From positions 82,141 to 146,140 of the IMG/VR virus record IMGVR_UViG_3300033146_003848: a DNA stretch of 64,000 bases. One strand, given 5' to 3'. This document shows positions 10,206-39,813 of the stretch, in pieces; the stretch's first letter is position 1, and every line of letters begins with the position of its first letter. The notes below the pieces were generated by a model. It was not told the DNA's origin. It saw only the letters and a program-made list of their open reading frames with translations, and made no database searches. Made by a program: the position numbers and the translations under genes. This DNA comes from a virus.

Positions 10206-10206
10206 T

Positions 10207-22821: not shown

Positions 22822-23442
22822 ATGGAAACTATACAAAAAATAAATTATAAGGATCATACGATTGAAATTTCATATGATGATTATTTTGAAAGTCCAAGAT
22901 GTTGGGATCAAAACTCAACAATGTTAATATTTCATCGAGAATATGATTTTGGTGATAAAAATGAATTGGGTATTGATAAAAATGATTTTAATGATTGGGA
23001 TGAAATGGAAGAATTCCTACAAAAGGAGATGAATATAGTAGTAATTTTACCAATTTACATGATGGAACATAGTGGGATAAGTATTCAAACAACTCCATTT
23101 AGTTGCTCATGGGATTCAGGAAGAGTGGGATTTATATATATTACTCGGGATCAGATGAAGGATGCATATGGGTATAAACTATTAAATGCCAGACGAGAAA
23201 AAGAAATCATAAGATACTTAACCAACGAAGTCAAATTAATGAATAACTATGTCACAGGAGATGTTTATGCATATTGTATTCGCAATGAGGACGACGAAGT
23301 ACTCGATTCATGTTCAGGGTTTTATGGTGATGATTGTATTCCCGAAATAATAGATGAATGTAAACGAATCATTGATACTTATCCTTCTTCTCAACAAATG
23401 ACTATTGCTGATTTTATACAGGAGAAAAAAGATGACCAATAA
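22822..23442 (+). CDS. conserved acidic phage protein
   Basis: PR.WD..HSGI..WDSG.VG.IY..DSCSGFYG family motifs. Confidence 0.7.
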   Translation: METIQKINYKDHTIEISYDDYFESPRCWDQNSTMLIFHREYDFGDKNELGIDKNDFNDWDEMEEFLQKEMNIVVILPIYMMEHSGISIQTTPFSCSWDSGRVGFIYITRDQMKDAYGYKLLNARREKEIIRYLTNEVKLMNNYVTGDVYAYCIRNEDDEVLDSCSGFYGDDCIPEIIDECKRIIDTYPSSQQMTIADFIQEKKDDQ

Positions 23443-24094
23443 AGAACTGATGGAACTGATGGGAGTCTCAAGAGAGACCGTTAGATTCTGGATCACAAAG
23501 GGAATTCCACATGTGGGAGAAACTCCCACAACAATGACTTTCCCCGAAAAAGAATGTCAACAATGGTTTATTGACAATAAAATAATAGGATACTTAAATG
23601 TGAAGGAGATAAAAGAAAAATATAACCTCTCACAAAAACAATTAACAGTTTGGCGAAATAATGGATTGCCCGAAGAGTGGAGTCCAATTCGTAAAAAGAA
23701 GGCAATATATAACATTGTAAAATTAGAAACTTGGGTTGAAGAAACAAATGCCCTTTCTATGTTTGATGAAGATCCTCGAATGAGCACTGCGGATATTTGT
23801 GAAATGTATAATGTAACTAGAGCGACAGTTTCTCTTTGGGTAAAAAATGGACTTCGAGGAGAAGATACTATTCATGGGTTTAGATTTGAACATAGTGAGG
23901 TTAGACGTTGGATAGAAAGTCACAAAAAATCCCAGAATAAATTAATTCTCATACAAGGTCAAGTATTCATTAGTAAACATAAAGATGTCGACCTTGTTGA
24001 ACGATATTACTCCATAAGTGAATTGGGAAAAATACTATCTGAAAATAAAAATGATCCTAAAACCATTCAACATATTTCTAATATGTTAATTTGA
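23432..24094 (+). CDS. triple MerR/excisionase-like winged-HTH DNA-binding protein, paralog 1
   Basis: three copies of the pattern EL....VSRETV..W...G.P ... W. Confidence 0.7.
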   Translation: MTNKELMELMGVSRETVRFWITKGIPHVGETPTTMTFPEKECQQWFIDNKIIGYLNVKEIKEKYNLSQKQLTVWRNNGLPEEWSPIRKKKAIYNIVKLETWVEETNALSMFDEDPRMSTADICEMYNVTRATVSLWVKNGLRGEDTIHGFRFEHSEVRRWIESHKKSQNKLILIQGQVFISKHKDVDLVERYYSISELGKILSENKNDPKTIQHISNMLI

Positions 24095-24202
24095 CTTGGT
24101 CATTTTTATGTGTTATACTATATATATAAACAATTAATTTTGATTGTTTGTTTTTAATAATTTTTTGAGTCAGAAAAGACTATAACATCGGAGACTATTA
24201 TG
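24091..24202 (+). promoter_or_regulatory. early promoter + two-hairpin leader
   Basis: near-identical leader to 28156-28269. Confidence 0.85.
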
Positions 24203-24445
24203 AATTTACAAGTGAATGGTGAATTACATTTGAGAATTTCCAACATGGAAGGTGTAGAAATTCAAAAAGATGAAGAAAAAATGGTTAGGTCGAAATTAAA
24301 GAGTGGAGATTATTTACTTAGCCTCAATAATAAATTTATTGTTGAATTAAAGAATTTTCAAACTCCAATATATACTTTTGATTTCGATGTCGATTCAATT
24401 ACCGAATATGATTTCATTGAAGATGCGGAGGAAAATGATGAGTGA
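24200..24445 (+). CDS. hypothetical protein
   Basis: leader and RBS. Confidence 0.7.
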   Translation: MNLQVNGELHLRISNMEGVEIQKDEEKMVRSKLKSGDYLLSLNNKFIVELKNFQTPIYTFDFDVDSITEYDFIEDAEENDE

Positions 24446-24707
24446 TAAAAATACAAAAAAAGCCCTGTTGAAAGAACAATTGGACAAATTAATGAGCCAA
24501 TTCTCAGATACAATTGATGAGAAGGTCAATCATGTGTTCGCATCGGGAACACTAGACGTGGACAATTTAGATGTCAGTGATGATAATTATACATTGGCTA
24601 AATTCTTCATGTGTGCATTAGGGAAAGAAATGTCGCACCAATATAAACATCCCAATTCTTCACGAAAACAAACCAAAACAATTGAGAGTATATATGGAGC
24701 AATGTGA
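24435..24707 (+). CDS. hypothetical protein
   Basis: GGAGG RBS. Confidence 0.65.
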   Translation: MMSDKNTKKALLKEQLDKLMSQFSDTIDEKVNHVFASGTLDVDNLDVSDDNYTLAKFFMCALGKEMSHQYKHPNSSRKQTKTIESIYGAM

Positions 24708-24782
24708 TGAAATATTTTGTAGCAATGTATTATGGCGAACGATATTTGACCACCATTAAGACTATTAATGAGGAGAATTAAA

Positions 24783-25085
24783 ATGAATATATTGCCAAAA
24801 ACAATGTCGAGTAGTAACGAAGCCACAATGAGAATTAAAAAATTCCATCATCCCTTTATTCACGTCCAATTACATGAGGTAAAGGATAACAAAACAAATA
24901 AAAAGTATTCAATATTACAGTGGCAATATTGGACACATGGTGATAATATTAATGTGACTAGAGTCGCAATTAAGGATATCACTAGTGACGAGGCCATTTT
25001 ACTTTGCGATGAATTGCCTGTTTTGACCGAGACCCTTCATGATGAAATTGCGGAGAAATTTACAATATTAAGTGTTCAATCATAG
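24783..25085 (+). CDS. hypothetical protein
   Basis: AGGAGAATTAAAATG. Confidence 0.65.
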   Translation: MNILPKTMSSSNEATMRIKKFHHPFIHVQLHEVKDNKTNKKYSILQWQYWTHGDNINVTRVAIKDITSDEAILLCDELPVLTETLHDEIAEKFTILSVQS

Positions 25086-25095
25086 GAGAATTAAA

Positions 25096-25422
25096 ATGAG
25101 AAAAATAGTAACATGGGTTGACGATAATGGAAATTCTTGGTCAGACTGTACTGAGAGAGAGGCAATCAAGAAGTCTAAGACCCTTAGAAATTGCACTAAT
25201 TGCAAAGATTGCACCTATTGTGTGAATTGCACAAATTGCACTAATTGTACTGAATGTGGGAATTTAGACGGTTGTGAACATTGTCACCAATGTGTGAATT
25301 GTAATAATTGTTTTCACTGTGATTATTGCACTGATTGCACCGACTGCAAAAATTGCACTAAATGTTTAGAGATTCGTGTTTCTAATGGTTCTAATTACGT
25401 TAACGTGAAACGAGGAGAATAA
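25096..25422 (+). CDS. Cys-repeat protein, paralog 2
   Basis: WVDDNGNSWSDCT..EA..KS + long CxxC run. Confidence 0.75.
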   Translation: MRKIVTWVDDNGNSWSDCTEREAIKKSKTLRNCTNCKDCTYCVNCTNCTNCTECGNLDGCEHCHQCVNCNNCFHCDYCTDCTDCKNCTKCLEIRVSNGSNYVNVKRGE

Positions 25423-25423
25423 A

Positions 25424-25702
25424 ATGATAGAAAAGAAAATTGCCCAATTTAGAGAAGAATTGAAATTCGACACTAAAGGGTTAAAAATGTTTAATGATAT
25501 CATCGAACACTCAAAGACCGATTCCAAATGTAATGCCTTATTTGAATTATACTTGACTTCACCTGTTCATAAGACTTTAACCCTCTTTAAAATCCTCAGA
25601 CTGACATTTCCAAATGAGGCAAAAGAAGACTCCTTGGAATTTACAAATAAATGGACATCAATAGACTCCGCATCAAATGAAATTTCCATCAGAAATAATT
25701 GA
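25424..25702 (+). CDS. hypothetical protein
   Basis: GAGGAG RBS. Confidence 0.65.
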   Translation: MIEKKIAQFREELKFDTKGLKMFNDIIEHSKTDSKCNALFELYLTSPVHKTLTLFKILRLTFPNEAKEDSLEFTNKWTSIDSASNEISIRNN

Positions 25703-25762
25703 CATGGTCTAAAATAAATGTTATACTAGTATTATGATAGTATCAATAGTGACACTATCAAT
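25699..25762 (+). promoter_or_regulatory. early promoter + ATAG-loop hairpin
   Basis: TTGACATGG..TGTTATACT; TGATAGTATCA-ATAG-TGACACTATCA. Confidence 0.8.
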
Positions 25763-25793
25763 TGATTATTAATTTAACACTATGGAGATCAAG

Positions 25794-26483
25794 ATGAATG
25801 GAAAGGAATTAATGCGAGGATATCATTGCACAAAGGCAACAGTCTTGATGTGGGTCTCACACGGTCTTCCACACGAAGGAGAAATATTCTCTAAAATGTC
25901 ATTCGATGCCAATGAAGTAGAAAAATGGTTAATAGAGAATAAAGTCATGAATCATTGGACAACCCAGGAATTAAAACAAAATTATAACCTCAAAAAAAGA
26001 CAGTACGACGTTTGGAGAAGTCACGGACTCCCTGAACAAAAAAGTCCCCTGTTCCCAAAAAGTATGAGAGTATATAATATCCTCGAAGTAGAACAATGGG
26101 TGTTAGAGAATGATGCCCTAAATTTCCACGAATCAAAGTCGACAACCAACGATATATGTGCCCGATATAATATCACTAGAGCCGCAGTCTCACTATTCAT
26201 CAAACAAGGACTCCCAAATGAAAAGACAATATATGGCCTCCGTTACGATATGAATGAAGTACACAAATGGATGATTAAGAATAATAAAGTCAACGGGAAA
26301 AAGAATCGCAAAAAGAAAAGGCAATCAGAAACAAAAGAAGACCTCATCATCACACTAAAAGGCCTCAATAAGTGGAAAAGTGATTGGCAAAAAAGAGGTG
26401 TTGATGACTCCAATAAAATTCAATCGTTGAATAATTTAATTGAAGGTGTGAAAAAAGACTTAGAAAAATTCGATAAATGTTGA
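25794..26483 (+). CDS. triple winged-HTH DNA-binding protein, paralog 2
   Basis: co-linear with 23432-24094 (DIC..YN.TRA.VS...K.GL). Confidence 0.7.
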   Translation: MNGKELMRGYHCTKATVLMWVSHGLPHEGEIFSKMSFDANEVEKWLIENKVMNHWTTQELKQNYNLKKRQYDVWRSHGLPEQKSPLFPKSMRVYNILEVEQWVLENDALNFHESKSTTNDICARYNITRAAVSLFIKQGLPNEKTIYGLRYDMNEVHKWMIKNNKVNGKKNRKKKRQSETKEDLIITLKGLNKWKSDWQKRGVDDSNKIQSLNNLIEGVKKDLEKFDKC

Positions 26484-26540
26484 CTCGGTTGATATTATAT
26501 GTTATAGTACTATTATAAAGTAAAAGTCAATAGTGACTTG
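26480..26540 (+). promoter_or_regulatory. early promoter + ATAG-loop hairpin
   Basis: TTGACTCGG..TGTTATAGT; AAGTCA-ATAG-TGACTT. Confidence 0.75.
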
Positions 26541-26575
26541 TTAGAGTGATTAATTCATACAAAGGAGAGACAACA

Positions 26576-26929
26576 ATGCAAAAAATTGTAACACAAAAAA
26601 TGATATACTGGCAAGACGACAACGACAACAAGTGGTCAGACTGCACTGAAGAAGAAGCCATTGAGAAGTCTAAGACCCTCAAAAATTGTACTAATTGTAC
26701 CGACTGCGAACGATGTGAAGACTGCCATGATTGTGAGAATTGCACAGACTGCAGATGGTGTGTAGATAGTGCCAATGCGTCCTTTTGCGAAGACTGCACC
26801 GATTGCAACCATTGTTCAGGATGCGAATCTTGTATAAAGTGTAACAATTGCGAAGACTGCATTGGTTGCGATGAATGTGAACAAAGTGAAGGTCTTGCGA
26901 ATGAATATCAAAGTGTCGGAAAAGAATAA
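26576..26929 (+). CDS. Cys-repeat protein, paralog 3
   Basis: YWQDDNDNKWSDCTEEEAIEKS + CxxC run. Confidence 0.75.
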   Translation: MQKIVTQKMIYWQDDNDNKWSDCTEEEAIEKSKTLKNCTNCTDCERCEDCHDCENCTDCRWCVDSANASFCEDCTDCNHCSGCESCIKCNNCEDCIGCDECEQSEGLANEYQSVGKE

Positions 26930-27116
26930 TGAAGAAACCAAAACAACGATGTCGAATGTTGAGTAGACAAAACCAAATAAATCCATATGCAACCCTTCAA
27001 CGAAATGAAAGTGTGAGTAGTAAGTCACTCCCCCTCTATTATATCGTCAGCCCTCAAATGAAACCAATTAGTCGACGAAAACCCAACACCCCCGGTGTTA
27101 AACAAAGGAGAATATT

Positions 27117-27539
27117 ATGAACGCCCAAATAACCAATATAAAATTCTTCATACAAGGGAATGCAATATTTACAGTATCAAACCCACAAAATGAACACTAC
27201 ACCTTTAAAGTGTCAAAAAAACCCAATGATGAAGACTCCCCACTATTCGTAGGATTATTAACAGGACCCAATAATGAATATAATTACCAGTATATAGGAA
27301 TACTAGACAAGTACCAATTAAAATTAACAAAAAAGTCCAATATAACACCATCATCAAAAGTCCTTAAAGTGTTCAATTGGACTTTAAAACAAGTGTACTT
27401 CAATAAAAGGCCTCCAAAAGGATACTCAATACAACATGTAGGTAAGTGTTGTAAGTGTGGAAGAACCCTAACAACACCAGAATCAATCGCCCTAGGAATA
27501 GGCCCTTCATGTAGAAAACAATCAAAGTCCTGGTCATAA
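27117..27539 (+). CDS. DUF6011-domain protein
   Basis: C-terminal CCKCGRTLTTPESIALGIGPSC. Confidence 0.75.
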   Translation: MNAQITNIKFFIQGNAIFTVSNPQNEHYTFKVSKKPNDEDSPLFVGLLTGPNNEYNYQYIGILDKYQLKLTKKSNITPSSKVLKVFNWTLKQVYFNKRPPKGYSIQHVGKCCKCGRTLTTPESIALGIGPSCRKQSKSWS

Positions 27540-27682
27540 AATTTACTGCATCCTATTCCCTCTTCATATTAGTCCATCCAAATAACCGCAACCCATCCAA
27601 TGAAAATCACCATTTTTTGTCCGTCCAATGTCGAACCAATACGTGTGTTGTTGCGTGTAGACAAATTAAACCGTCCGACCAT

Positions 27683-27736
27683 TACCAACCAATACCAACC
27701 AACCAATACCAACCAACCAATACCAACCAATACCAA
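27683..27736. repeat. TA(CCAA)n microsatellite
   Basis: taccaaccaa taccaaccaaccaa taccaaccaaccaa taccaaccaa taccaa. Confidence 0.9.
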
Positions 27737-27918
27737 ATTATCCATTGTCGACTTATAAAATATAGGGATCCTCAATTAATCATTTTCAATACTATTAATT
27801 GGTCCTCATTTTTTACCATAAGGACCTCCAATTTCTTATAATTTATAGGCGACTTTTGTTTGTTTTTTTGGTCTTCATCCTTTTTCCTTATATAAGGCGA
27901 ATTACTTATATGGAATAT

Positions 27919-27947
27919 TTGACAGGGTCATTTAATTATGATATACT
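27919..27947 (+). promoter_or_regulatory. early sigma70 promoter with no downstream RBS/ORF
   Basis: TTGACAGGG..TGATATACT. Confidence 0.75.
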
Positions 27948-27952
27948 ATTAA

Positions 27953-28110
27953 AGTGAGTGAGACTTTTTGTTTTTTCAACACTCACCCTGGTTTCCCTTA
28001 ACCGATAAAATTAAGGGACCCTGCGTACTTGTGATGATGGATCCTATTAGTGATTGCCTTGGGCGTGACGCGTTGAAGGTGACTTCGACTTTTAGGATCC
28101 TCACTTTAAT
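27953..28110 (+). ncRNA. candidate structured small RNA
   Basis: promoter-driven, no SD; stems GTGAGTG/CACTCAC, TCCCTTAA/TTAAGGGA, GGATCCTA/TAGGATCC, AGTGAG/CTCACT. Confidence 0.45.
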
Positions 28111-28155
28111 GACAATTGTAAGGGCCAGTGCGAATAAAAATAAAAGTCATTTTAT

Positions 28156-28269
28156 TTGACTTGGTTGTTTTATTGTGTTATAATATGTATATAAACAATT
28201 GAAATTGATTGTTTGTGTTTTTAATACTTTTTTGAGTCAGAAAAGACTATAACATCGGAGACTATTATG
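28156..28269 (+). promoter_or_regulatory. early promoter + two-hairpin leader
   Basis: TTGACTTGG..TGTTATAAT; AAACAATTG/TGATTGTTT; AGTCAGAAAAGACT; CGGAG. Confidence 0.85.
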
Positions 28270-28917
28270 AGTGAAGTAAAAAAAGAAATCGTTAATGGCA
28301 ATGAGGCTCCAATTGTACACGGCATTGATTCATTAGAGGCTGAAATGAATGCGATGAACGGTATTCCTGTTGAGGTGTCTAAGAAGTCTATCAAATTAAA
28401 AGGGACTGCAAGGGTCGAGAGGCCTGTTCCTAGAGAGCCGAAGAAGAAATTGAAGATGGCTGCACATGCAAAATTTTTTAAGGCGAATGGTGGAAAGAAG
28501 AATGCGGATCAATTGAAAGTGAATTACAAAATGGTTGCAGAGTGGGTTCGTAGTATCATTGAAATTTACAACGTGAAGGATCACTTTGAAGTACATTGTA
28601 AGAGGAGTAAAAAGGACGTAAAGAACGTGGACTTCAATAAGGACGTTGCAGTGAGTAAAGAGAACCCTCGTACAGTGAAGAAAGAAGTGTATGCGGTTGT
28701 TTTTAATCGTAAAGAGGGTGATGAAGTGATTGAAGTACGCAAGGATCAATACAAGTCAGAAGAAATGTTGGTTAGGTCTCTCGCAAATATGGTGTACTTT
28801 GCGACTGCGAAAGTAAAAGAGTACGCGGCTGACCATAAAATTGAGCCACAATACGAGAAAAAAGTGGCTACTGAGGCTAAAACAGTGAAAGAGACTGTGT
28901 CCAACGAAAAGAAGTAA
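28267..28917 (+). CDS. Lys/Val/Glu-rich hypothetical protein
   Basis: 216 aa, monocistronic with own promoter and terminator. Confidence 0.8.
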   Translation: MSEVKKEIVNGNEAPIVHGIDSLEAEMNAMNGIPVEVSKKSIKLKGTARVERPVPREPKKKLKMAAHAKFFKANGGKKNADQLKVNYKMVAEWVRSIIEIYNVKDHFEVHCKRSKKDVKNVDFNKDVAVSKENPRTVKKEVYAVVFNRKEGDEVIEVRKDQYKSEEMLVRSLANMVYFATAKVKEYAADHKIEPQYEKKVATEAKTVKETVSNEKK

Positions 28918-28934
28918 TCATTAGGACTATTATG

Positions 28935-28971
28935 AAGTGAGGACTTATTCAGTCCTCACTTTGGCTTTTTT
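28935..28971 (+). terminator. intrinsic terminator
   Basis: AAGTGAGGACT-TATTC-AGTCCTCACTT then T-rich tail. Confidence 0.7.
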
Positions 28972-29639
28972 CGTATTGATTCCCTATTAGGACGGACTCC
29001 ACTTAGGGAGGTAGGGTGTGGGACGAAGGCTCTCAATTAATATAGTGGAAATAGTGTATGCCCTTTTCATTAATGGGTATTAGTGGTTGACTTGTATGCA
29101 ACGATAAAAAATTCTTAATAGTAAAGTGCAAGTGAAGTAATTTTTGTTCTTAAAGTCACACTATCATATATTGTTGGTCATTATATTGATTCGCCGGTTC
29201 GTCTGTGTCGCGAAAGGGCACGTACTTAGTAGTATAGTATTGATGAATCCTGTGTTTTTATGGGAACGAGTGCCGGTTTCCCTTAACCATCGAGGATCCT
29301 GGACTTATGGTCAATGGATATGCGTGTTTGCGAGGATTGGATCCATTTAGGACGGACTCCACTTAGGACGGTCGAATTCGGGATAAAATTGGAAACCGGC
29401 ACGGTTGAAATCATTAGAGAAAATCGTCACTAGGACTTGTTTATATTGGACTGATAGGATTTGAGTGGACTTTTTCGTTTTCGCCTCGAGGTGATCCTAT
29501 TTCTTGGGTTGGATGGTTGAATGGTTATGAGTACTTAGTGGTAACCGACTTTTTATTGATTTGAGTCGGATTTGTATGGTGTTGCCGGTTGAAATCATTG
29601 ACGGATTTCGTCACTACACAATTGGTTGGAATTTTCACT

Positions 29640-29921
29640 TTATTTGATGATTCCCATTCGTTCGAATTCGAAGTCTACGGCTTCGTTGAAGGATGACTTG
29701 TACAATTCATCAATTTGTTCTTGTAATATTGTCATTCTCAAGTGGGACCTTCCGATATCACGGAGTTGCATGGTTCGTTCTTCATAGAACAATTCTTTTG
29801 TTTCGAAGTCTTCGGGTTGCATAATCCTTACTACTTCTGTGAGTACTTTTGCGGCCCTTTGGTTTCCGAAGTACTCTCTTTGGAGGTCTTCCATTTTTGT
29901 TTTGTCGTGGTGATTCATCAT
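29640..29921 (-). CDS. hypothetical protein
   Basis: GAGGG RBS; promoter at 30018. Confidence 0.7.
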   Translation of the reverse strand: MMNHHDKTKMEDLQREYFGNQRAAKVLTEVVRIMQPEDFETKELFYEERTMQLRDIGRSHLRMTILQEQIDELYKSSFNEAVDFEFERMGIIK

Positions 29922-29989
29922 TTTACTTCCCTCATCATACTAAATTAATAATCAATTGAAAGTAACACTATTGATACTTTCATAATAAT

Positions 29990-30080
29990 AGTATAACATA
30001 TAATATCAACCGAGTCAACGTTATAATGAATTATTTTAAATTATTATTTTATTGACACGGTTGATATTATATGTTATTAT
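29990..30080. promoter_or_regulatory. back-to-back divergent early promoters
   Basis: 26-bp inverted repeat 29993-30018 / 30052-30077 (1 mismatch), each arm a TTGAC..TGTTAT promoter. Confidence 0.8.
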
Positions 30081-30137
30081 TGACTCGTATTATTAATATT
30101 GATATTACAAACGATAACAACAAAAAGGAGACTTATT

Positions 30138-30362
30138 ATGACTAATGCAGAAATTAAACAAGTACTTAATGAAAAAATGGAATTGATGGAACGCCACTAC
30201 AAGAACAGACTTATTACCGAGGAAGTGTGGAAAGAAGTACTAATCATGGACAATTACTATAAGAAAATTGTAAAGAATTACGCCTTCGCACTTCGTCAAC
30301 GCCAAAAACAAATTGAAGAAACGTATGATCCTAGAAGTCGTAAGAAAAGTAATGAAATATAG
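30138..30362 (+). CDS. hypothetical protein (inverted cassette)
   Basis: AAGGAG RBS; only + strand gene in the - strand block. Confidence 0.7.
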   Translation: MTNAEIKQVLNEKMELMERHYKNRLITEEVWKEVLIMDNYYKKIVKNYAFALRQRQKQIEETYDPRSRKKSNEI

Positions 30363-30366
30363 TAAA

Positions 30367-30564
30367 TTATATAACGATTAATTCTAAAAGTCCACACTTA
30401 ATTATCCCAGAAGTCAACGTCATATTTGGTATATTCATTTGACTATTAATTGTTTGATCGATGGCTTCACTTAAGTCCTTTGTGTTTATGTTAATTGTTT
30501 TGTTTGATACCATCACTTTATCATTGACTTGGAAAGTCCTTTTGACTAATAGGCTAAATTGCAT
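30367..30564 (-). CDS. hypothetical protein
   Basis: GGGAG RBS. Confidence 0.55.
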   Translation of the reverse strand: MQFSLLVKRTFQVNDKVMVSNKTININTKDLSEAIDQTINSQMNIPNMTLTSGIIKCGLLELIVI

Positions 30565-30739
30565 CCTTGATTCTCCCTGTTTCCTTGAATTGTAAGTACT
30601 TTTTAATATCATTGATGGTGATATGGTCAAGTATACCATAGGCATTCTTTGTATTCATTGTTCCGGACCCTTCAATTAACGTTGTTGTTGCCAACATTAT
30701 TTGATTTAATTGGGTATCATTCATTTTATTTTGTTGCAT
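30554..30739 (-). CDS. hypothetical protein
   Basis: AGGAGG RBS. Confidence 0.6.
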   Translation of the reverse strand: MQQNKMNDTQLNQIMLATTTLIEGSGTMNTKNAYGILDHITINDIKKYLQFKETGRIKDAI

Positions 30740-30752
30740 AATTTCCTCCTTT

Positions 30753-31004
30753 TTAATATATTAAGTGACCATTTTTAAGGCGATGAATAAATTCTTTCAT
30801 TGCATTAGTGATGGTTTTTACTTCAATTTTTTCTGTCTCAGTCCATTCATCAGTAATATCCTTGATTAACAAGTCTACGTTTCCCTCTTCATCACTCAAT
30901 TGGTGATAATATGCAAACAAGAATGACTTGGCATCATATGAGAATTTTGTGTCCCTTAATTTCTTCAAGAAAGTCCTTTTAGTCGTTGTTGTTTTAAATA
31001 ACAT
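30753..31004 (-). CDS. hypothetical protein
   Basis: GGAGG RBS. Confidence 0.65.
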   Translation of the reverse strand: MLFKTTTTKRTFLKKLRDTKFSYDAKSFLFAYYHQLSDEEGNVDLLIKDITDEWTETEKIEVKTITNAMKEFIHRLKNGHLIY

Positions 31005-31017
31005 AATGACCTCCATT

Positions 31018-31263
31018 TTAAATTGTTCCCTTCACGTACTCAGTGAAGGAGAATGCAAATATTTCTGATTCATTGGCATCATCCAATGAATATACTTCTA
31101 GGCTTTCCAAGAAGTCAATCACTTCTTCTTCCCCATACTTTTCACCATACACTTCACAAATGGAATCGGCAATACTTTCCAATTCATAAACCTCATTGAC
31201 TTCCACACAGTGACAGTAATGTCCATTCCTTTCCTCAAGTACTTCTTCGAAAATCATATTCAT
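31018..31263 (-). CDS. very acidic small protein
   Basis: AAGGAG RBS; Glu-rich. Confidence 0.7.
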   Translation of the reverse strand: MNMIFEEVLEERNGHYCHCVEVNEVYELESIADSICEVYGEKYGEEEVIDFLESLEVYSLDDANESEIFAFSFTEYVKGTI

Positions 31264-31342
31264 TTTATTCTCCTTCAAATTGTTATTCTCATCATAATGC
31301 AAGGATCATTCCACTATTGAAATGACCCTTCGTTGTTGTACC

Positions 31343-31501
31343 CTAATTATACTTTCTGACCATTTCTTCGATGATCATTTTAATCGTCCTTGTTTCCTCT
31401 TCAGACTCCTTTGTCTTGGTGATGATTGCAAAGTGGCTTAATTTATCATACTCGTCTAATGAGTATGCGACTTTGTGGTTTTGAATCGTTGTTGTTAACA
31501 T
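31343..31501 (-). CDS. 52-aa hypothetical protein (not in ORF track)
   Basis: GGAGG RBS directly after the promoter-hairpin cassette. Confidence 0.6.
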   Translation of the reverse strand: MLTTTIQNHKVAYSLDEYDKLSHFAIITKTKESEEETRTIKMIIEEMVRKYN

Positions 31502-31596
31502 GATAGCCTCCGTTTTAAGTAATCAATAATCAATTGATAGTAACACTATTGTTACTATCATAATACTAGTATAACATATAATATCAACCAAGTCAA
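31499..31596 (-). promoter_or_regulatory. early promoter + ATAG-loop hairpin + RBS
   Basis: TTGACTTGG..TGTTATACT; TGATAGTAACA-ATAG-TGTTACTATCA. Confidence 0.85.
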
Positions 31597-31829
31597 TTAC
31601 TTTTGTTGATATACTCTAAAAAATTAATTGACACTTGCCCATATTGAATGTCGCAGACTCCGTCTCCTATTAACGCCTCTCTGTGATACTTGTCGACTAC
31701 TTCACCATCATGCCTCACTATTTGGTTAATAAATTCATTTTCTGCGGCATCCCTATCGTGAAAGTCAAACACGAATTGGTCATTCACTTGATTTTTATAC
31801 GTTACGGTTACAACAATTACTTTCATCAT
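31593..31829 (-). CDS. hypothetical protein
   Basis: AAGGAG RBS in cassette. Confidence 0.7.
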   Translation of the reverse strand: MMKVIVVTVTYKNQVNDQFVFDFHDRDAAENEFINQIVRHDGEVVDKYHREALIGDGVCDIQYGQVSINFLEYINKSN

Positions 31830-31922
31830 AAGTCTCCTTTCTTCTAAATTAATAATCAATTGAAAGTAACACTATTGATACTTTCATAATACTAGTATAA
31901 CATATAATATTAGCCAAGTCAA
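31824..31922 (-). promoter_or_regulatory. promoter-hairpin-RBS cassette, identical to 32257-32355
   Basis: about 99-bp direct repeat. Confidence 0.85.
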
Positions 31923-32031
31923 TTAATTTATGTTTGAAGTAAAAAAATTCAAATAAGTGTTACTTTTCTTTGATTGTTTTTGATTGTCTGGGACTTGATT
32001 TTTGAGTAATATTGAAGTACTTTACTTTATG

Positions 32032-32262
32032 TTATTGATACTTTTCGAAAATAGGAAGTGAGACTTCATTACCGTGTATTACACTATCATCATAATTCAA
32101 GGAGTCCGAATACACTTTGTTATTAATAAGGGCCATTCTTCGTCGTCGGTTCTTTTCCATATTAATGATGAAATTATTTCCCCTCACTTTCCATTCATCA
32201 TTGGTTAACCTCATTTGATTCACCAATATCATCAAGTCTTTTCTTTTAGGCATTACCATCAT
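32032..32262 (-). CDS. hypothetical protein
   Basis: AAGGAG RBS in cassette. Confidence 0.65.
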   Translation of the reverse strand: MMVMPKRKDLMILVNQMRLTNDEWKVRGNNFIINMEKNRRRRMALINNKVYSDSLNYDDSVIHGNEVSLPIFEKYQ

Positions 32263-32355
32263 AAGTCTCCTTTCTTCTAAATTAATAATCAATTGAAAGT
32301 AACACTATTGATACTTTCATAATACTAGTATAACATATAATATTAGCCAAGTCAA
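32257..32355 (-). promoter_or_regulatory. promoter-hairpin-RBS cassette
   Basis: copy of 31824-31922. Confidence 0.85.
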
Positions 32356-32439
32356 CGTTATATGAAAGTATTTTTTGATGATCGGTTAGGTACCTAACCA
32401 ATGGAGAGGGCCCAAGTAGGACGGTTGAAAGTCACCTCA

Positions 32440-32471
32440 GAAACCGGCACTCTGTGACGAGTGCCGGTTTC
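32440..32471 (-). terminator. GC-rich stem-loop
   Basis: GAAACCGGCACTC-TGTGAC-GAGTGCCGGTTTC. Confidence 0.65.
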
Positions 32472-32472
32472 C

Positions 32473-32754
32473 CTATCCCGTTATATACTCAATTCCATGG
32501 CTCTCACAATGACACTTTTGACTAGAGTCGTTCGCCTCATATATGTCATCACCACTCACTTCTACTGAGTCAGTGGACTTATAATAGTATATGTAATTAG
32601 CCTTCATTGTCGCACTCTCCCAATTCCACTTATTAATAATGGTCAGGAAGTCTTCTACTTTAAAACACCACACTTTTTGTTCTAACCCTCGATTATAGTA
32701 AGTGAATTCCCTATAATTACATAAGTACATTGCATCTGCCTTTGATATTAACAT
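32473..32754 (-). CDS. hypothetical protein
   Basis: GGGAG RBS. Confidence 0.65.
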   Translation of the reverse strand: MLISKADAMYLCNYREFTYYNRGLEQKVWCFKVEDFLTIINKWNWESATMKANYIYYYKSTDSVEVSGDDIYEANDSSQKCHCESHGIEYITG

Positions 32755-33146
32755 TAGTGTCTCCCATGTCGTCTGTTATCAAGCCTCATTTGTTCCGTTT
32801 TTAATATTACTTTATTCATTAACCATACAGGAATTGTTAGTATTCCACCCAATATCACGTTGAAGGTTGACGTAAACAAAAACAAATTGAACCAAGGAAT
32901 TTCAAAGAAAGGAGTATGATAGTGTGTTCCAACAATTAAAACGCCAAAGTATGCCGCAGAAAACGTTCCTGAAATAATATAGGGCAATGGTCCTGCAATA
33001 AGTATTATTATCATTGCCCAAAGTCCCATATATATATTCCAATCGTCTAATGGAATACCACTAAATGCACCTGTTGATAAGTACACGTATGGTCCCAAAA
33101 TTATTAATATTGCAATTAGTCGCCATTTGATAAAGTCCCACATCAC
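32754..33146 (-). CDS. multi-pass membrane protein
   Basis: about four hydrophobic helices. Confidence 0.7.
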   Translation of the reverse strand: MMWDFIKWRLIAILIILGPYVYLSTGAFSGIPLDDWNIYMGLWAMIIILIAGPLPYIISGTFSAAYFGVLIVGTHYHTPFFEIPWFNLFLFTSTFNVILGGILTIPVWLMNKVILKTEQMRLDNRRHGRH

Positions 33147-33216
33147 TTTCTCCGTTTTCTAATTGGAGGTCGTTTTTTGAATAAGTCTAGTAAAGTCTTT
33201 TTGCGTGGCCTATTTC

Positions 33217-33447
33217 TCATAATATTCTCCTTTTATGTAAGTCGTCCTTATTGAATTTAATAATTCTACCTCCGACTTTCTGATGTCGGTAGTGAATTTC
33301 TTCATTAAGGAGAACCAAGTCTTCCATAGTGTGATTTTTTGCCTGTAATACTTTTTCGATTGCCTCGTGCAAGTCGTCTGTATTGACTTGCACTATTTCA
33401 CAGGTTTCCAATAAGTCGTATTGTTTTTTAATTTCCAATTCAATCAT
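33217..33447 (-). CDS. hypothetical protein
   Basis: overlaps upstream stop. Confidence 0.6.
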   Translation of the reverse strand: MIELEIKKQYDLLETCEIVQVNTDDLHEAIEKVLQAKNHTMEDLVLLNEEIHYRHQKVGGRIIKFNKDDLHKRRIL

Positions 33448-33644
33448 AATATTCCCATGCCTTTTAATTCACACTTGATTTTCGCAGGTACTTCAGAGAG
33501 TGATACTTTGGTTTCCATCACTTTCCAATAAGTGCAACGACCATACTCATACATTTCTCTCATAGTCTCGTCTGCCTCTTCTTGATTGTTGTAATAGCCG
33601 ATTCCAATGATTCCAATTAAGGCGATAAGTAATACTTTCTTCAT
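33444..33644 (-). CDS. small signal-anchored protein
   Basis: MKKVLLIALIGIIGIGYY. Confidence 0.65.
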   Translation of the reverse strand: MKKVLLIALIGIIGIGYYNNQEEADETMREMYEYGRCTYWKVMETKVSLSEVPAKIKCELKGMGIL

Positions 33645-33751
33645 AATAGTCTCCGATTTTAAAGTCTTCTCTGACTTAAAAATTAATAAAACAAACAATC
33701 AATATCGATTGTTTATATATATAGTATAACATATAAAAGTAGCCAAGTCAA
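33642..33751 (-). promoter_or_regulatory. early promoter + two-hairpin leader
   Basis: same leader family as 24091, 28156, 34316. Confidence 0.85.
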
Positions 33752-34101
33752 TTAATTATTGAGAATTGTGATGATGGTGTCGCATTATCAATACCATTCT
33801 CATTCAAACAATTTGAACAATCAGAACACTCTTGGCAATTATCACAATTTAAACACCATTGACAATACGAAAGGCTCGTGCAATCGGTACAGTCATATGA
33901 ATATGATACATTTTTACAATTGATGAGCCTTGTCGAGTAATAACAATGGTGACTTCTTGTGCAGTCAGTGCAATTGGTGCAATCAGTACAATTGTCTAAT
34001 GAAGAAGACTTCTTAATTGCCTCTTCTTCAGTGCAGTCTGACCATTTGTTGTTGTTCTCGTCTTGCCAATATTCCACGTGGTTCAATATTACTTTTTTCA
34101 T
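33748..34101 (-). CDS. Cys-repeat protein, paralog 4
   Basis: YWQDENNNKWSDCTEEEAIKKS + Cys run; AAGGAG RBS. Confidence 0.75.
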   Translation of the reverse strand: MKKVILNHVEYWQDENNNKWSDCTEEEAIKKSSSLDNCTDCTNCTDCTRSHHCYYSTRLINCKNVSYSYDCTDCTSLSYCQWCLNCDNCQECSDCSNCLNENGIDNATPSSQFSIIN

Positions 34102-34102
34102 T

Positions 34103-34318
34103 TTATTCTCCTTTTGTTGTTCGTACTTCATACTTCCCATTTGATGAGAAGTGATTGGCAATACTTTCCACCACTTCGTCTTCTGTGTTACCAATTGCCC
34201 AAGAGTCTAAGTCCTTCACGTATGCCCAATATTCACCGTCTCTAAAAACAGTATCGACACTGAATCTTTCAAACACATACTTCGCATTTTTCACAAGGAC
34301 TTCAAAATTAATTCTCAT
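34103..34318 (-). CDS. hypothetical protein
   Basis: CGGAG RBS in leader. Confidence 0.65.
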   Translation of the reverse strand: MRINFEVLVKNAKYVFERFSVDTVFRDGEYWAYVKDLDSWAIGNTEDEVVESIANHFSSNGKYEVRTTKGE

Positions 34319-34425
34319 AATAGTCTCCGATTTTAAAGTCTTTACTGACTTAACAATTAATAAAACAAACAATCAATATCGATTGTTTATAATACTACTA
34401 TAACATTTAAATGAAACCATGTCAA
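34316..34425 (-). promoter_or_regulatory. early promoter + two-hairpin leader
   Basis: TTGACATGG..TGTTATAGT. Confidence 0.85.
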
Positions 34426-34947
34426 GACTTTTTAATATCATTTTATCATTATTTTACCCTCATTGAAACCATTGCAATTTCATTTCAAGTCAATATGGAA
34501 CCTTGTATCAATAAACAAGTGAGGACTTCAGTAATAATGAAATGAATTGAACCGGTGTTGATTCTGAGTCAAAATGATATCACTAATACTTTACTATTCA
34601 AAAATTGTTTTCGTTGCAAATATCATAAAAGGATCACTTGAAAATGAAATAGGATGAAATGAATTGAAAGTGAAACAAAATGAAGTAGGGTTAATTAAAG
34701 TGAGACTGAAGTGGAGGGAATTTGTATTTGATACTGATTGACTTCGGTTGGTAATATTTCAATTGCAACCTCGTTAGGGTTTAACCGTCCCGATTGATAT
34801 GATACCTCAATATTGAATTTAATTAGGTGGAATCCAAGTATGAACCCTAAATGAGGATGGTTACCAAAAAGGACGGTACAGTGTAAATTGAAAATAAACC
34901 CTTAATTTTTTTAAGTGTCCATCGTTGATATTATTATTACTACTTCC

Positions 34948-35220
34948 TTAAATTGTTTCTAAGTCAAATTTAAGTGAAGTAGTGTTTTTTATATATTCAT
35001 AAAATTTATACGACCCTGTTGATAGTAGAGACGATATTAATGATGATGATATTTCAATATTACTTGTATCAATTAAAAACATGAATAATTGATACTCTTC
35101 TGTCTCGGTCAAATCAGTATCAGACTGAGCCAAAATCATGAGGGTTTGGGTAAGTGTGGAATTGATAAAAAGTGATCTGAAGTCTTTTTCTGATACTTTA
35201 CAATCGTTTATAATAATCAT
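34948..35220 (-). CDS. cassette protein, paralog of 37044-37445
   Basis: shared LA.S.T.L.E..EY.LF..LID and SYKFYEY.K....LKFD..TI. Confidence 0.75.
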   Translation of the reverse strand: MIIINDCKVSEKDFRSLFINSTLTQTLMILAQSDTDLTETEEYQLFMFLIDTSNIEISSSLISSLLSTGSYKFYEYIKNTTSLKFDLETI

Positions 35221-35331
35221 TTTCTTTTCCTGTTTTTAAAGTCTCTACTGACTAAAAAATTAATAAGAACACAAACAATTAATATCAATTGTTTATAATA
35301 CTAGTATAACACTTAAATGAGACCTTGTCAA
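35218..35331 (-). promoter_or_regulatory. early promoter + two-hairpin leader
   Basis: TTGACAAGG..TGTTATACT; AGTCAGTAGAGACT; AGGAAA RBS. Confidence 0.8.
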
Positions 35332-35548
35332 TTCCATTTCAAATTAATTTTATAAAAAAAAAGAAATATACTTACTTCAAATAGTCTCATATTCAATCGA
35401 GATCAAACGATATGGAAAAATGAATAGTAAAGTATATACTTGAAATAAAAAATGATTATTATCAAAACACAATAGGTCTCAATGTTATTTTATTCAATCA
35501 ATACCTTCCCTAATTTATATCGTCCATTTAGGACGGTTCCCAACCATA

Positions 35549-35714
35549 ATAGGTCGTCACTAAAGTAAAATTGAACCTCGATGAGAATTAATGATTCCCA
35601 AATAGGACGGTACAGAGACATTGACCTCGATAGGTCGTCACTAAAGTAAAATTGAACCTCGATGAGAATTAATGATTCCCAAATAGGACGGTACAGAGAC
35701 GATTCGACCTCGAT
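35549..35714. repeat. 2 x 81-bp tandem repeat (TAGGACGG island)
   Basis: units start at 35549 and 35630. Confidence 0.9.
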
Positions 35715-35731
35715 AGGGAATAGTATTATAT

Positions 35732-35765
35732 AAAAAAAAGTAGTTGCTATTCGCAACTACTTTTT
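35732..35765. terminator. bidirectional terminator, repeated 4 times
   Basis: AAAAGTAGTTGC-TATTC-GCAACTACTTTT; also at ~36993, ~38198, ~39292. Confidence 0.85.
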
Positions 35766-35774
35766 ATCAAATAT

Positions 35775-36233
35775 CTAACGCTTCACAAGTTCTGCAATAT
35801 TTTCTAGTTTTGAAAAATGTGACATCTCATCAAAATGTATATTCAATAGTGAGTTTGTGATTAATAAAGCAATCTCTAAAGCATTTTGTTCCAGATCATC
35901 AAAATGATTTAGAATAAAATTTAAATCATCAAAACTTTCATATTCCAATGCTAGTTTTAATTCTTGAATTCGAAATTTAAAATCTCTTTTTCCCAGTTCC
36001 TCTGCTTCGTCGGCAATTCCCGCAACATCAATTATATGAAAAAGAAATATTGCTTTTTCTTCAATTGAATATTCATGTTTTCTTGAGTCAATAAAAGCAA
36101 GCGTAAAATCAAAATCTTTTGTATACTCATCTATAGCATACAGTCTCTCTAATTCAGTATCAAATTGTTTTTCAAAAGCAATGTGAAACAATTCATGATC
36201 AATTTCTTTTCCGAACACATTAATTTTTTTCAT
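35775..36233 (-). CDS. acidic cassette protein, paralog of 39343-39813
   Basis: LFH..F.K..D, LFH..D..GI, LA.EY, DL..I shared. Confidence 0.75.
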   Translation of the reverse strand: MKKINVFGKEIDHELFHIAFEKQFDTELERLYAIDEYTKDFDFTLAFIDSRKHEYSIEEKAIFLFHIIDVAGIADEAEELGKRDFKFRIQELKLALEYESFDDLNFILNHFDDLEQNALEIALLITNSLLNIHFDEMSHFSKLENIAELVKR

Positions 36234-36342
36234 GATAATTTTCCTGTTTTTAAAGTCTGTACTGACTAAAAAGTTTAAAAACACAAACAAGCAATATCGA
36301 TTGTTTATAAGTAACTATAACATAAAATAATTCCCGTGTCAA
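36231..36342 (-). promoter_or_regulatory. early promoter + two-hairpin leader
   Basis: TTGACACGGGAA..TGTTATAGT. Confidence 0.85.
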
Positions 36343-36820
36343 TTCTATTTCAAATTATTTTAAATTAAAATTATTTTAAAGTAAAAATATTTTAAAAATA
36401 ATAAAATGATATAATAATAAACAAAATAAACTTACTTCAAATAGTTCCATATTCAATCGAGATCAAACGATATGGAAAAATGAATAGTAAACTATATACT
36501 TAAAAAAAATCAATTATCATAACGAAAAAATAAAATAAAATTTGTCAATTTTATTCATTAAAATTAAAAAAAATAATTATAAATAATTATAAAATCACAA
36601 TAGGCTTCTATATTATTTTATTAGATCGATACCTTCCCTAAATTTATAATTGAATTAAAAAAATGATTCATTTTGTTTCAATAATTATTTAAATCAATTC
36701 ACTAAAGGGAATTTCCATCTTGCATTCGACCGTCCTATTCGGGAATTATATGTTCATATAGGTTTAAATCCATTTAGGACGGTTCCCAACCACGATAGGT
36801 CGTCATTTAAGTAAAATTGA

Positions 36821-36975
36821 ACCTCGATGAGAATTAATGATTCCCAAATAGGACGGTACAGAGACATTGACCTCGATGAGAAATAATGATTCCCAAATAG
36901 GACGGTACAGAGACATTGACCTCGATGAGAAATAATGATTCCCAAATAGGACGGTACAGAGACATTGACCTCGAT
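36821..36975. repeat. 3 x 49-bp tandem repeat (TAGGACGG island)
   Basis: units at 36821, 36870, 36919. Confidence 0.9.
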
Positions 36976-36992
36976 AGGGAATAATATTATAT

Positions 36993-37025
36993 AAAAAAAA
37001 GTAGTTGCTATTCGCAACTACTTTT
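36993..37025. terminator. bidirectional terminator copy
   Basis: same sequence as 35732. Confidence 0.85.
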
Positions 37026-37043
37026 ATCAAATATCTTTCAAAT

Positions 37044-37445
37044 TTATGAAAATTGCAAGATTTCTTCTTTTGTTAAATCACTATTATTTAACATTTCAAC
37101 TAAAATATTTTTATTTAATGTTTTTTTATCAAAATGAATTTGAATAGTTTTTTTATCAAATTTCAAACAACTAATTTTTTTCATATACTCATAAAATTTA
37201 TATGAAGTTTGTAGTAAATTCGCTAGAAGTTCCATTGCAATTTTTTTATTTTCAATATCAATATTAGTATCATTATTAAGTTCCTCAAACGCTCTTTTAT
37301 GCATATCAATTAATGATTTAAATAAATCATACTCTTGATCTTCATTTAATCTAGTTTTTGATTTTGCTAAAAAAAGTACACTATCACTTAAAGTTGCATC
37401 AAAAATTTGTTCAAATTCATACGATGTTAATTTAATTTTTTTCAT
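37044..37445 (-). CDS. cassette protein, paralog of 34948-35220
   Basis: 133 aa; no Gly, Pro or Trp. Confidence 0.75.
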   Translation of the reverse strand: MKKIKLTSYEFEQIFDATLSDSVLFLAKSKTRLNEDQEYDLFKSLIDMHKRAFEELNNDTNIDIENKKIAMELLANLLQTSYKFYEYMKKISCLKFDKKTIQIHFDKKTLNKNILVEMLNNSDLTKEEILQFS

Positions 37446-37553
37446 GATAATTTTCCTGTTTTTAAAGTCTGTACTGACAAAATTAATAAAAAAACAAACA
37501 ATCAATATCGATTGTTTATAAGTAACTATAACACATAAATTTTCCCGTGTCAA
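37443..37553 (-). promoter_or_regulatory. early promoter + two-hairpin leader
   Basis: near-identical to 38583-38695. Confidence 0.85.
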
Positions 37554-38005
37554 TTCTATTTTAAATTAATTTAAATTAAAACTATTTTAATTCTATTCTA
37601 TTATATTATATTATATTCTATTTTAAAACAATTAAAATGGAAATTGTTTTACTTTCATTTTAATGATACTTCAAATAGTTCCATATTCAATCGAGATCAA
37701 ACGATATTCAAAAACTAATAGTAAAGGAAAGACTTGAAAAAATCAATTGACATAACGAAAAAATAAAATAAAATTTGTCAATTTTATTCCTTAAAATTAA
37801 AAAAAAATAACTATAAAATAATTTTAAAATCACAATAGGCTTCTATATTATTTTATTAGATCGATACCTTCCCTAATTTAAACTCACTTAAAAAATGATT
37901 CATCTTGTTTCAATAAGTATCAACATAAATCAGTCGAGGGAATTTCCATCTTGCATTCGACCGTCCTATTCGGGAATTATATGTTCATATAGGTTTGACT
38001 CCATC

Positions 38006-38160
38006 TAGGACGGCTCCCAACCACGATAGGTCGTCACTAAAGTAAAATCAAACCGTGATGATAAATATAATTCCCAAATAGGACGGTTCCCAACCACGAT
38101 AGGTCGTCACTAAAGTAAAATCAAACCATGATGATAAATATAATTCCCAAATAGGACGGT
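38006..38160. repeat. 2 x 73-bp tandem repeat (TAGGACGG island)
   Basis: TAGGACGG at 38006, 38079, 38152. Confidence 0.9.
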
Positions 38161-38197
38161 ACAGAGACATTGACCTCGATAGGGAATAGTATTATAT

Positions 38198-38231
38198 AAA
38201 AAAAAGTAGTTGCTATTCGCAACTACTTTTT
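38198..38231. terminator. bidirectional terminator copy
   Basis: same sequence as 35732. Confidence 0.85.
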
Positions 38232-38246
38232 GTCAAAATCTTGAAA

Positions 38247-38585
38247 TTAAAAATCAAAATTCTCTTTGATTATAAGTTTAAATTCGTCAATGTTTCTATC
38301 ATCATCATATGAAAATTGAAACTTTACTTTTGTAAGATCAAAATCATCATCATTAACTATTATTTCATATGATTCTACTTTCAAAGAATCTAAAGTTATC
38401 ATATGAAAATTTTTGAGACACTGAAAATAAATAAAATTTCTGATAATTTCTGAATTTAGATCAATTTCAGAAATTATCATTTCCTCAATATCATTTTTAT
38501 GATAATCTCTGCAAGCGTTATTTTCTGATAACGCGAATTGGGAAATGAAATTGAAATACATTGTAACAGTTGTTGATTTTTTCAT
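38247..38585 (-). CDS. acidic cassette protein
   Basis: 112 aa; no Gly, Pro or Trp. Confidence 0.75.
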   Translation of the reverse strand: MKKSTTVTMYFNFISQFALSENNACRDYHKNDIEEMIISEIDLNSEIIRNFIYFQCLKNFHMITLDSLKVESYEIIVNDDDFDLTKVKFQFSYDDDRNIDEFKLIIKENFDF

Positions 38586-38695
38586 GATAATTTTCCTGTT
38601 TTTAAAGTCTCTACTGACTAAAAAGTTTAAAAAAAACAAACAATCAATATCGATTGTTTATAAGTAACTATAACACATAAATTTTCCCGTGTCAA
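38583..38695 (-). promoter_or_regulatory. early promoter + two-hairpin leader
   Basis: TTGACACGGGAA..TGTTATAGT. Confidence 0.85.
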
Positions 38696-39291: not shown

Positions 39292-39322
39292 AAAAAGTAG
39301 TTGCTATTCGCAACTACTTTTT
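39292..39322. terminator. bidirectional terminator copy
   Basis: same sequence as 35732. Confidence 0.85.
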
Positions 39323-39342
39323 GTCAAAATCTTGGAATTATA

Positions 39343-39813
<471 letters not shown>

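Follow-up and report, generated by a model that had tools for sequence, protein, structure and literature searches.

An 11-kb module of a T4-like phage fragment depleted of one-mismatch neighbours of AGCT

A contiguous module of 11 kb in the genome fragment of an uncultured T4-like myovirus from sediment is nearly free of four word pairs, AGCA/TGCT, AGCG/CGCT, AACT/AGTT and AGAT/ATCT, each of which differs from the tetranucleotide AGCT at a single position. The module lies within the window analysed here, a stretch of 64,000 nucleotides that comprises bases 82141-146140 of the 146,140-bp IMG/VR record IMGVR_UViG_3300033146_003848; positions are those of the window unless the record is named, and counts for the genome refer to all 146 kb. 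AGCT itself does not occur in the 146 kb, where a Markov model predicts 191 occurrences. Avoidance of near-cognate (star) sites is the best description of the pattern, and the purge is kept up now, or was until very recently. The three pairs other than AGAT/ATCT, whose clearance is complete but for one word, are referred to as strict.

24725-35741: core purged module ("state A"), 22 small genes, on the plus strand to about 28.9 kb and mostly on the minus strand from 29.6 kb
23828-24724: left shoulder, with strict words already scarce (AACT at 24361, AGCA at 24698 and 24721) and AGAT/ATCT not yet purged
29764-29767, plus strand: AGTT in the context GGAGTTG, the sole survivor of the strict classes

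Extent and specificity of the purge

In 24725-35741, AGCA/TGCT occurs 0 times against 70 expected, AGCG/CGCT 0 against 19, AACT/AGTT once against 144, and AGAT/ATCT 12 times against 159. Expectations for the zone, here and below, are drawn from the word density of the rest of the genome unless base composition or a codon null is named. For the eight 4-mers together they amount to about 390 sites. An earlier note on this DNA, made from the letters alone, had described the depletion for 24725-35170, where outside density or base composition predicts 57-67 sites of AGCA/TGCT, 15-35 of AGCG/CGCT, 125 of AACT/AGTT and 122 of AGAT/ATCT. A full count confirms its report that AGCA/TGCT, AGCG/CGCT and AACT are absent there, and every survivor that it listed is correctly placed (besides the single AGTT, AGAT/ATCT at 25206, 25370, 25786, 25792, 26753, 26764, 26827, 28454, 32734 and 34264).

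The zone is real, and it is slightly larger than was first described. On the right, strict words are missing up to 35741, after which the terminator of the next cassette supplies AGTT, TGCT and AACT within 15 bases. On the left, strict words thin from about 23.85 kb, in a leaky shoulder, and are gone after 24721. All 22 zone genes carry 0-7.8 purged words per kb, versus 34.7 ± 10 in the 201 other genes, and no second island without these words was found in the contig. The same words are normal beyond the zone, as had been noted, with 0.99-1.39 observed/expected in the rest of the genome. GC content is 0.35 in the core module, with 0.365 at third codon positions, and 30% in the record.

The depleted set coincides with the one-mismatch shell of AGCT except for the two pairs that contain GG/CC, a claim of the earlier note that was borne out both by counting words by Hamming distance and by a blind scan for gaps. 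Four of the six Hamming-1 pairs stand at 0-0.08x the density of the rest of the genome. The two GG/CC-bearing pairs are spared, with ratios of 1.12x and 1.23x (about 1.2x for AGCC/GGCT and about 1.1x for AGGT/ACCT); in 24725-35170, AGCC/GGCT (30 occurrences) and AGGT/ACCT (34) are at outside density. No class among the 30 two-mismatch classes is depleted; many distance-2 words are enriched instead, absorbing the replacements (AGTC 2.7x, AGAC 2.3x, AAGT 2.0x). When the longest gaps of all 2-, 3- and 4-mers in the 146 kb were ranked blindly, AACT/AGTT, AGCA/TGCT and AGAT/ATCT took ranks 1-3 with scores of 49-65, and AGCG/CGCT took rank 5 with a score of 13, held down by its rarity. At random, the top four of 134 word pairs in strength of purge would all belong to the six neighbours of one word with a probability of about 1e-6 (C(6,4)/C(134,4)). 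Purge strength is ordered: AGCT is gone everywhere, AGCD/HGCT and AACT/AGTT are completely cleared from the zone, AGAT/ATCT is leaky, and AGCC/GGCT and AGGT/ACCT are untouched.

The depletion is not a by-product of codon choice, and persists under two codon nulls. When synonymous codons were permuted among the zone's own genes, so that their skewed usage was kept, AGCA/TGCT was observed once versus 31 ± 5, AGCG/CGCT 0 times versus 13 ± 3, AACT/AGTT twice versus 64 ± 6, and AGAT/ATCT 10 times versus 64 ± 6.5. Redrawing the codons from outside usage gave expectations that are higher still. The purge is equally complete in the 3.8 kb of non-coding DNA of the zone, where purged words number 0, 0 and 2 against 11, 41 and 38 expected, and the spared pairs match expectation. 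A word and its reverse complement are both missing, in the plus-strand half as well as in the minus-strand half. This strand symmetry places the constraint on the DNA duplex, or on its two single strands alike, and not on mRNA or translation; together with the equal purge in non-coding DNA, it rules out an RNA-level or translation-level cause.

Exhaustive single substitution of the zone showed that each change creates on average 0.14 purged words, 0.10 of them in the strict classes. In the absence of selection, a count of one strict word in the 11 kb leaves room for fewer than about 45 neutral substitutions (<0.4%). Among the residual words, 12 of 13 are AGAT/ATCT, whereas neutral decay predicts 74% in the other classes (P ~1e-6), and the residue therefore reflects weaker selection on AGAT/ATCT rather than decay. 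Repeats and paralogues within the zone have diverged by 15-60% without gaining words, which argues that the regime is old. Variant contigs of related strains carry 31 listed substitutions that make 1 purged word versus 3.5-4.3 expected, a sample that is too small and lies partly near contig ends. The residual words have no significant GG/CC or GATC flanking context.

Frames, paralogues and the array next door

The zone consists of small orphan genes behind near-consensus extended -10 sigma-70 promoters, and it is adjoined on the right by an array of single-gene cassettes with a different word usage ("state B"). Copies of the same elements on either side of the border provide internal controls.

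35742-41300: state-B array of single-gene cassettes, with AGCT neighbours at normal density
35221-35560, minus strand: frame of a B-type cassette inside the zone, aligned with three out-of-zone copies
34948-35220, minus strand: cassette gene of B-type descent, paralogous to 37044-37553 (38% amino acid identity), with a GC content at third codon positions (GC3) of 0.25
28133-28277, plus strand: promoter-leader frame of a 216-aa orphan gene, with TTGACT-N17-TATAAT, a leader hairpin and a GGAG ribosome-binding site, free of purged words
28267-28917, plus strand: the 216-aa orphan gene, with a near-consensus promoter before it and a strong terminator (28933-28963) after it
26546-26929, plus strand: Cys-rich paralogue with 21 Cys
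25782-26483, plus strand: multi-helix-turn-helix paralogue, 42% identical to 23405-24094 just outside the zone; its own Pfam and PHROGs matches are weak
27117-27539, plus strand: DUF6011 protein, with homologues of 53-58% identity on other phage contigs

Promoter-leader frames recur through the early region. The copies within the zone have no purged words, while those outside it, at 16156, 36306, 37517 and 38659, carry 1-3 each (for example TATAGTTAC and AAACTT). In the B-type frame at 35221-35560, GAGACT and TATACTAGTA stand in the places that are taken by GGAACT and TATAGTTAC in its three homologues outside; the perfectly conserved TGATCTCG block retains ATCT in 4 of 4 copies of this frame. 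The gene of B-type descent at 34948-35220 follows the state-A rule, with one ATCT, yet contains GG/CC other than GGAA.

Coding sequences are recoded in the same manner. The Cys-rich family is represented in the zone also by 25072-25422 and 33748-34194 (minus strand), and outside it by 12282-12509. The W-E-D-D of the outside copy is written TGG GAA GAT GAT, and the earlier note's contrast between GAA-GAT-GAT in the gene at 12282 and CAA-GAC-GAC at 26576 was verified; zone copies use GAC after a codon ending in A. These proteins have 16-21 cysteines in N-C-x-x-C repeats and belong to PHROG 15341, of unknown function. For the DUF6011 protein, the two homologue contigs that were read have normal word content.

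State B is purged of another set of words. In its gene bodies GG/CC survives only as GGAA/TTCC; AGCC/GGCT and AGGT/ACCT, the pairs spared in the zone, are at 0, as are GGT, GGC, GGAC, GGAG and GGAT, each versus 8-46 expected. GC content falls to 0.22, and the encoded proteins have no Trp and are nearly without Pro and Gly. Between these genes lie islands of the TAGGACGG repeat that are GG-rich.

28988-39208: TAGGACGG octamers, 17 copies, 15 of them on the plus strand; the rest of the 146 kb has none
41355-41503: five 37-bp repeats, each with GGATCC, adjoining an AT-rich tract of about 500 bp where transcription diverges

Most TAGGACGG octamers stand in repeat blocks of 49-81 bp after cassette terminators, and they may form a polar protein-binding array. 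The 37-bp repeats could be an origin or a binding array. The zone genes themselves converge on a non-coding stretch at 28.9-29.6 kb. This stretch (28920-29640) and another at 27540-28260 have consensus promoters of their own (e.g., 27919-27947), the common motifs GGTTTCCCTTAACC and TTAGGACGGACTCCACTTAGG, and five GGATCC sites; both may be small RNA genes. No Rfam family was matched in 22-43 kb.

The record as a whole is linear, with a CheckV completeness estimate of 65%.

50123-54007: tail sheath, 1294 aa, of the gp18 type of T4-like phages
54070-62255: four large HNH homing-endonuclease paralogues (PHROG 3339) within 8 kb, downstream of the sheath
Record 37820-38575, minus strand: Dam-like D12-class adenine methyltransferase (PF02086, E 1e-34); no other family of DNA methylases was found in the contig

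The best match of the sheath is that of Campylobacter phage CP81 (33% identity, C-terminal third); resemblance to gp18-type sheaths is confined to the last ~470 residues, which leaves a very long N-terminal extension. Two public runs, one from sediment and one a marine sediment metagenome, hold short contigs of low depth that are identical to parts of the window. Genome-wide, GCGC is absent (33 expected under the Markov model). CGCG is rare outside the zone (9 vs 33 expected), and several 6-mers are scarce throughout (CTTAAG, 3 vs 49; TACGTA, 5 vs 49; CGTACG and GACGTC, 0).

Explanations for the cleared words

Our preferred explanation, which we offer tentatively as a good possibility, is that an early module must remain uncut whenever a relaxed AGCT-type cutter is at work. 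The module would be under zero-tolerance selection, at the level of DNA, against the near-cognate sites of a relaxed AGCT-specific cleaving activity; the cognate AGCT would have been purged from the whole genome, and near-cognates only from this module, the DNA that would have to remain whole and open to transcription as long as nothing restrains the cutter. It might enter the cell first, as does the first-step-transfer (FST) DNA of T5, or its products might be what then restrains the cutter. The cutter could belong to the host and be induced by infection, or come from the phage and be engaged in shredding host DNA.

The one-mismatch shell, the genome-wide loss of AGCT, the strand symmetry and the near-zero tolerance all fit AGCT-type cleavage that includes near-cognates; near-zero tolerance is what a lethal event, for example cleavage at near-cognate sites, would bring about. 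Near-consensus extended -10 promoters are likewise expected of a module transcribed immediately by the host RNA polymerase. Selection that depends on position or function is favoured because the purge is fresh, a B-type cassette within the zone conforms to it, and the adjacent array is equally pristine but differently purged. We infer both that the agent is a nuclease and the reason for the regional confinement of the purge.

Several observations weigh against this explanation. The neighbours of AGCT are undepleted in the rest of the genome, so that the contrast is binary and not graded. GGCC, avoided in the rest of the genome (9 vs 45 expected), occurs 11 times in the zone, and GTAC and CCGG are about 4x denser there; in a leading region, as the most exposed DNA, GGCC, GTAC and CCGG would be expected to be purged no less than in the remainder. 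GC3 is 0.362 in the zone and 0.228 outside, and a redraw of outside codons in which the purged words were forbidden predicts 0.257 from the purge alone. That redraw accounts for the shifts seen in Asp, Val, Ala, Ser and Thr, and it fails for His CAC (0.53 in the zone vs 0.15 outside), Tyr TAC (0.40 vs 0.13), Phe TTC, Arg AGG and Lys AAG. A GC3 above the purge-only prediction means that the module has a background composition of its own. Very recent import by way of PeSL-like frames is favoured by this distinct GC3 and by the relaxed GGCC/GTAC/CCGG profile. A host enzyme of such specificity would need its own genome protected. The FST DNA of T5 shows no complete purge of any 4-mer (lowest, AGAG/CTCT at 0.24x). 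Finally, the earlier note had attributed near-cognate avoidance, confined to this zone, to an AGCT-recognising enzyme or binding protein; the word pattern and the genome-wide absence of AGCT stand, and no candidate gene for an AGCT-type nuclease was identified in the phage. A search for PvuII-type nucleases gave none, but the control genomes gave no match either.

The main rival is that the module was imported, a reading we consider somewhat unlikely: very recent recombination at cassette frames common to both would have brought in the 11 kb from a related phage lineage, one in which an enzyme of host or phage that cuts near-AGCT words as well had shaped the early region or the entire genome, and the pattern would be inherited and not selected here. 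In composition (GC3; GGCC/GTAC/CCGG profile) the zone has the character of a horizontally acquired island, and the compositional differences named above, in GC3, in His CAC and Tyr TAC, go beyond the purge, as does the relaxed avoidance of GGCC, GTAC and CCGG. Both borders fall at repeated promoter/terminator frames; recombination in T4-type phages is known to use PeSL-type frames as substrates (PMC2839356), and the sediment-run contigs diverge from the window at such frames. Import requires, however, that neutral divergence since the transfer be below about 0.4%, and a second import just as fresh, out of another exotic regime, would have to account for the state-B genes. The zone rule also holds for the cassette of B-type descent that the zone contains. 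The question of the purging agent would merely be moved to the donor, and no donor-like sequence turned up in any collection searched. A megablast of the zone and one flank against 50,697 phage records gave no match; IMG/VR had none for three zone proteins, the sheath C-terminus and two conserved frame motifs, nor had the JGI metagenomes for the two motifs. Among 5.8 billion proteins, two zone proteins matched only themselves, and the 216-aa orphan had no usable match in a protein atlas. No orthologous block was found in these collections, and the DUF6011 relatives are only distant, with normal word content.

A further reading covers zone A and state B (zone B) together. The early region would be zoned, each gene module escaping a different frequent cutter, a relaxed AGCT-type one in zone A and one that reads GG/CC in zone B, and these cutters would be phage-borne or infection-induced shredders of all other DNA. 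We regard this as unlikely but worth stating. The role of GG/CC bears also on another suggestion of the earlier note, that an overlapping GG/CC, perhaps modified, neutralises a site. Hints in its favour come from GGCC, whose avoidance is relaxed in the zone, and from state B, with its purge of GG/CC; the methylase search, which found only the Dam-like enzyme (no C5 methyltransferase, no PF01555-type N4/N6 methyltransferase and no TGT/DpdA gene in the contig), and the residual words, which are not significantly flanked by GG/CC, hint against it. Sparing of the G1, C2, G3 and C4 variants can be explained by the intrinsic specificity of the agent, and modification is not needed because star hierarchies are uneven.

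It is improbable that the words are targets of a relaxed-AGCT activity, of phage or host, that modifies or coats DNA, and from which an early module must stay unmarked. Early transcription would be blocked by it, or the DNA would become a target of a modification-dependent nuclease, which would agree with a purge limited to the module transcribed by host RNA polymerase, and with a neighbouring zone purged of another class of short words although this costs it Trp, Pro and Gly. The optimal site, AGCT, occurs nowhere in the genome, however, which is odd for a target of self-modification, and zero tolerance (0-1 site vs ~230 expected) suits an irreversible lethal event better than binding; methylases in the contig are, as noted, of the Dam-like type only.

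Two further accounts are very improbable. The contig could join two co-occurring phages at shared repeats, the zone being from another genome; the record is indeed metagenome-assembled, with borders at repeats, but two switches back to the same flank type would be required and the shared frames are just 80-89% identical. The two independent sediment runs also contain contigs identical to parts of the zone, the flank and state B at similar low depth, a weaker point since no border-bridging contig is listed. Equally hard to credit is a coincidence of several independent short-motif systems, context-specific mutation, or selection at the translation or RNA level: codon usage in the zone is shifted overall, but the four purged pairs all lie among six neighbours of AGCT, the purge is identical in non-coding DNA, on both strands and in both directions of transcription, the two-mismatch words that absorb changes are enriched, and mutational bias cannot keep 8 words at zero while related words rise.

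Relation to known systems

The zone resembles ordinary restriction-site avoidance in that AGCT and GCGC are absent, GGCC and CGCG are avoided outside it, and selection acts on DNA words independently of coding. It differs in that non-palindromic near-cognates are avoided, and only over 11 kb.

Phage T5 offers a parallel for a block of DNA with its own restriction exposure. EcoRI sites are cleaved only in the FST DNA (10.1101/866236), and Davison proposed that this DNA lacks sites for a phage nuclease, T5 A1 (10.1101/866236). As in the FST DNA of T5/BF23, the zone is a block of about 10 kb with small, mostly orphan genes and strong host-type promoters; restriction exposure differs from that of the rest of the genome, and the logic, by which a site-free block would survive a frequent cutter, is shared. 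Here, by contrast, the block belongs to a T4-like myovirus fragment, its genes converge and do not diverge, and no zone open reading frame matched a PHROG or Pfam family annotated as A1, A2 or dmp. In the T5 terminal repeat (1-10219), AGAG/CTCT is at 0.24x and GAAC/GTTC at 0.38x of the next 40 kb, a moderate and incomplete depletion. T5 FST DNA thus has no comparable purge, and the zone is therefore not simply "a T5-like block". The polar TAGGACGG copies (17, only in 28988-39208) and the 37-bp GGATCC repeats (41355-41503) are the repeats that might be compared with a repeat-rich injection-stop border of the T5 type.

In the murciaviruses, motifs in the leading region decide Type I restriction (PMC12455610). 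The system (Murciavirus/Mme2I, Autographiviridae) is likened to the zone in that only motifs of the first-exposed region, rich in anti-defence genes, matter for restriction; there, one bipartite Type I motif with few sites and a known entry order is involved, unlike the eight 4-mers, with about 390 expected sites, that are cleared here.

Star activity of Type II enzymes is a biochemical counterpart. EcoRI* and LraI cut single-substitution variants of their cognate sites in an uneven hierarchy (PMC5896346), and the zone purge shows a comparable hierarchy of substitutions. Star activity is known in vitro, and no enzyme has been identified for the zone. The CviJI* set is RGCN/NGCY; unlike it, the zone spares AGCC/GGCT and is hit at AACT and AGAT. 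No paper on the avoidance of star sites was found in the literature.

The architecture of the zone recalls the PeSL cassettes of T4-type phages, in which strong sigma-70 promoters and stem-loops frame single small orphan genes (ORFans) in a hyperplastic early region (PMC2839356). TTGACA/T-N17-TATANT promoters with TG, leader hairpins and identical terminators frame small ORFans here also, in a phage with a gp18-type sheath. The likeness lies in modular architecture and possible gene flux, and the word purge is unexplained by PeSLs.

Restriction avoidance has so far been read as a matter of cognate sites and whole genomes; here the one-mismatch shell of a site is cleared over 11 kb only. If the selection is indeed by a cutter, the purge would be a sequence-level read-out of the in vivo specificity hierarchy of an enzyme, and near-cognate cleavage could be lethal in nature. 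The purge would also show which part of the phage DNA lies exposed during the action of defences, or of a host-shredding nuclease of the phage itself. Should the early region be zoned, it would be a natural realisation of the unproven idea that pre-early DNA of T5 survives the destruction of host DNA by lacking nuclease sites, and the first genomic evidence of star cleavage in vivo strong enough to shape a genome. Together with the GG/CC-free cassettes next door, selection by a cutter would suggest a general, undescribed design rule for early and anti-defence modules of phages, and the 22 orphan genes of the zone would be prime candidates for anti-defence or host-takeover functions.

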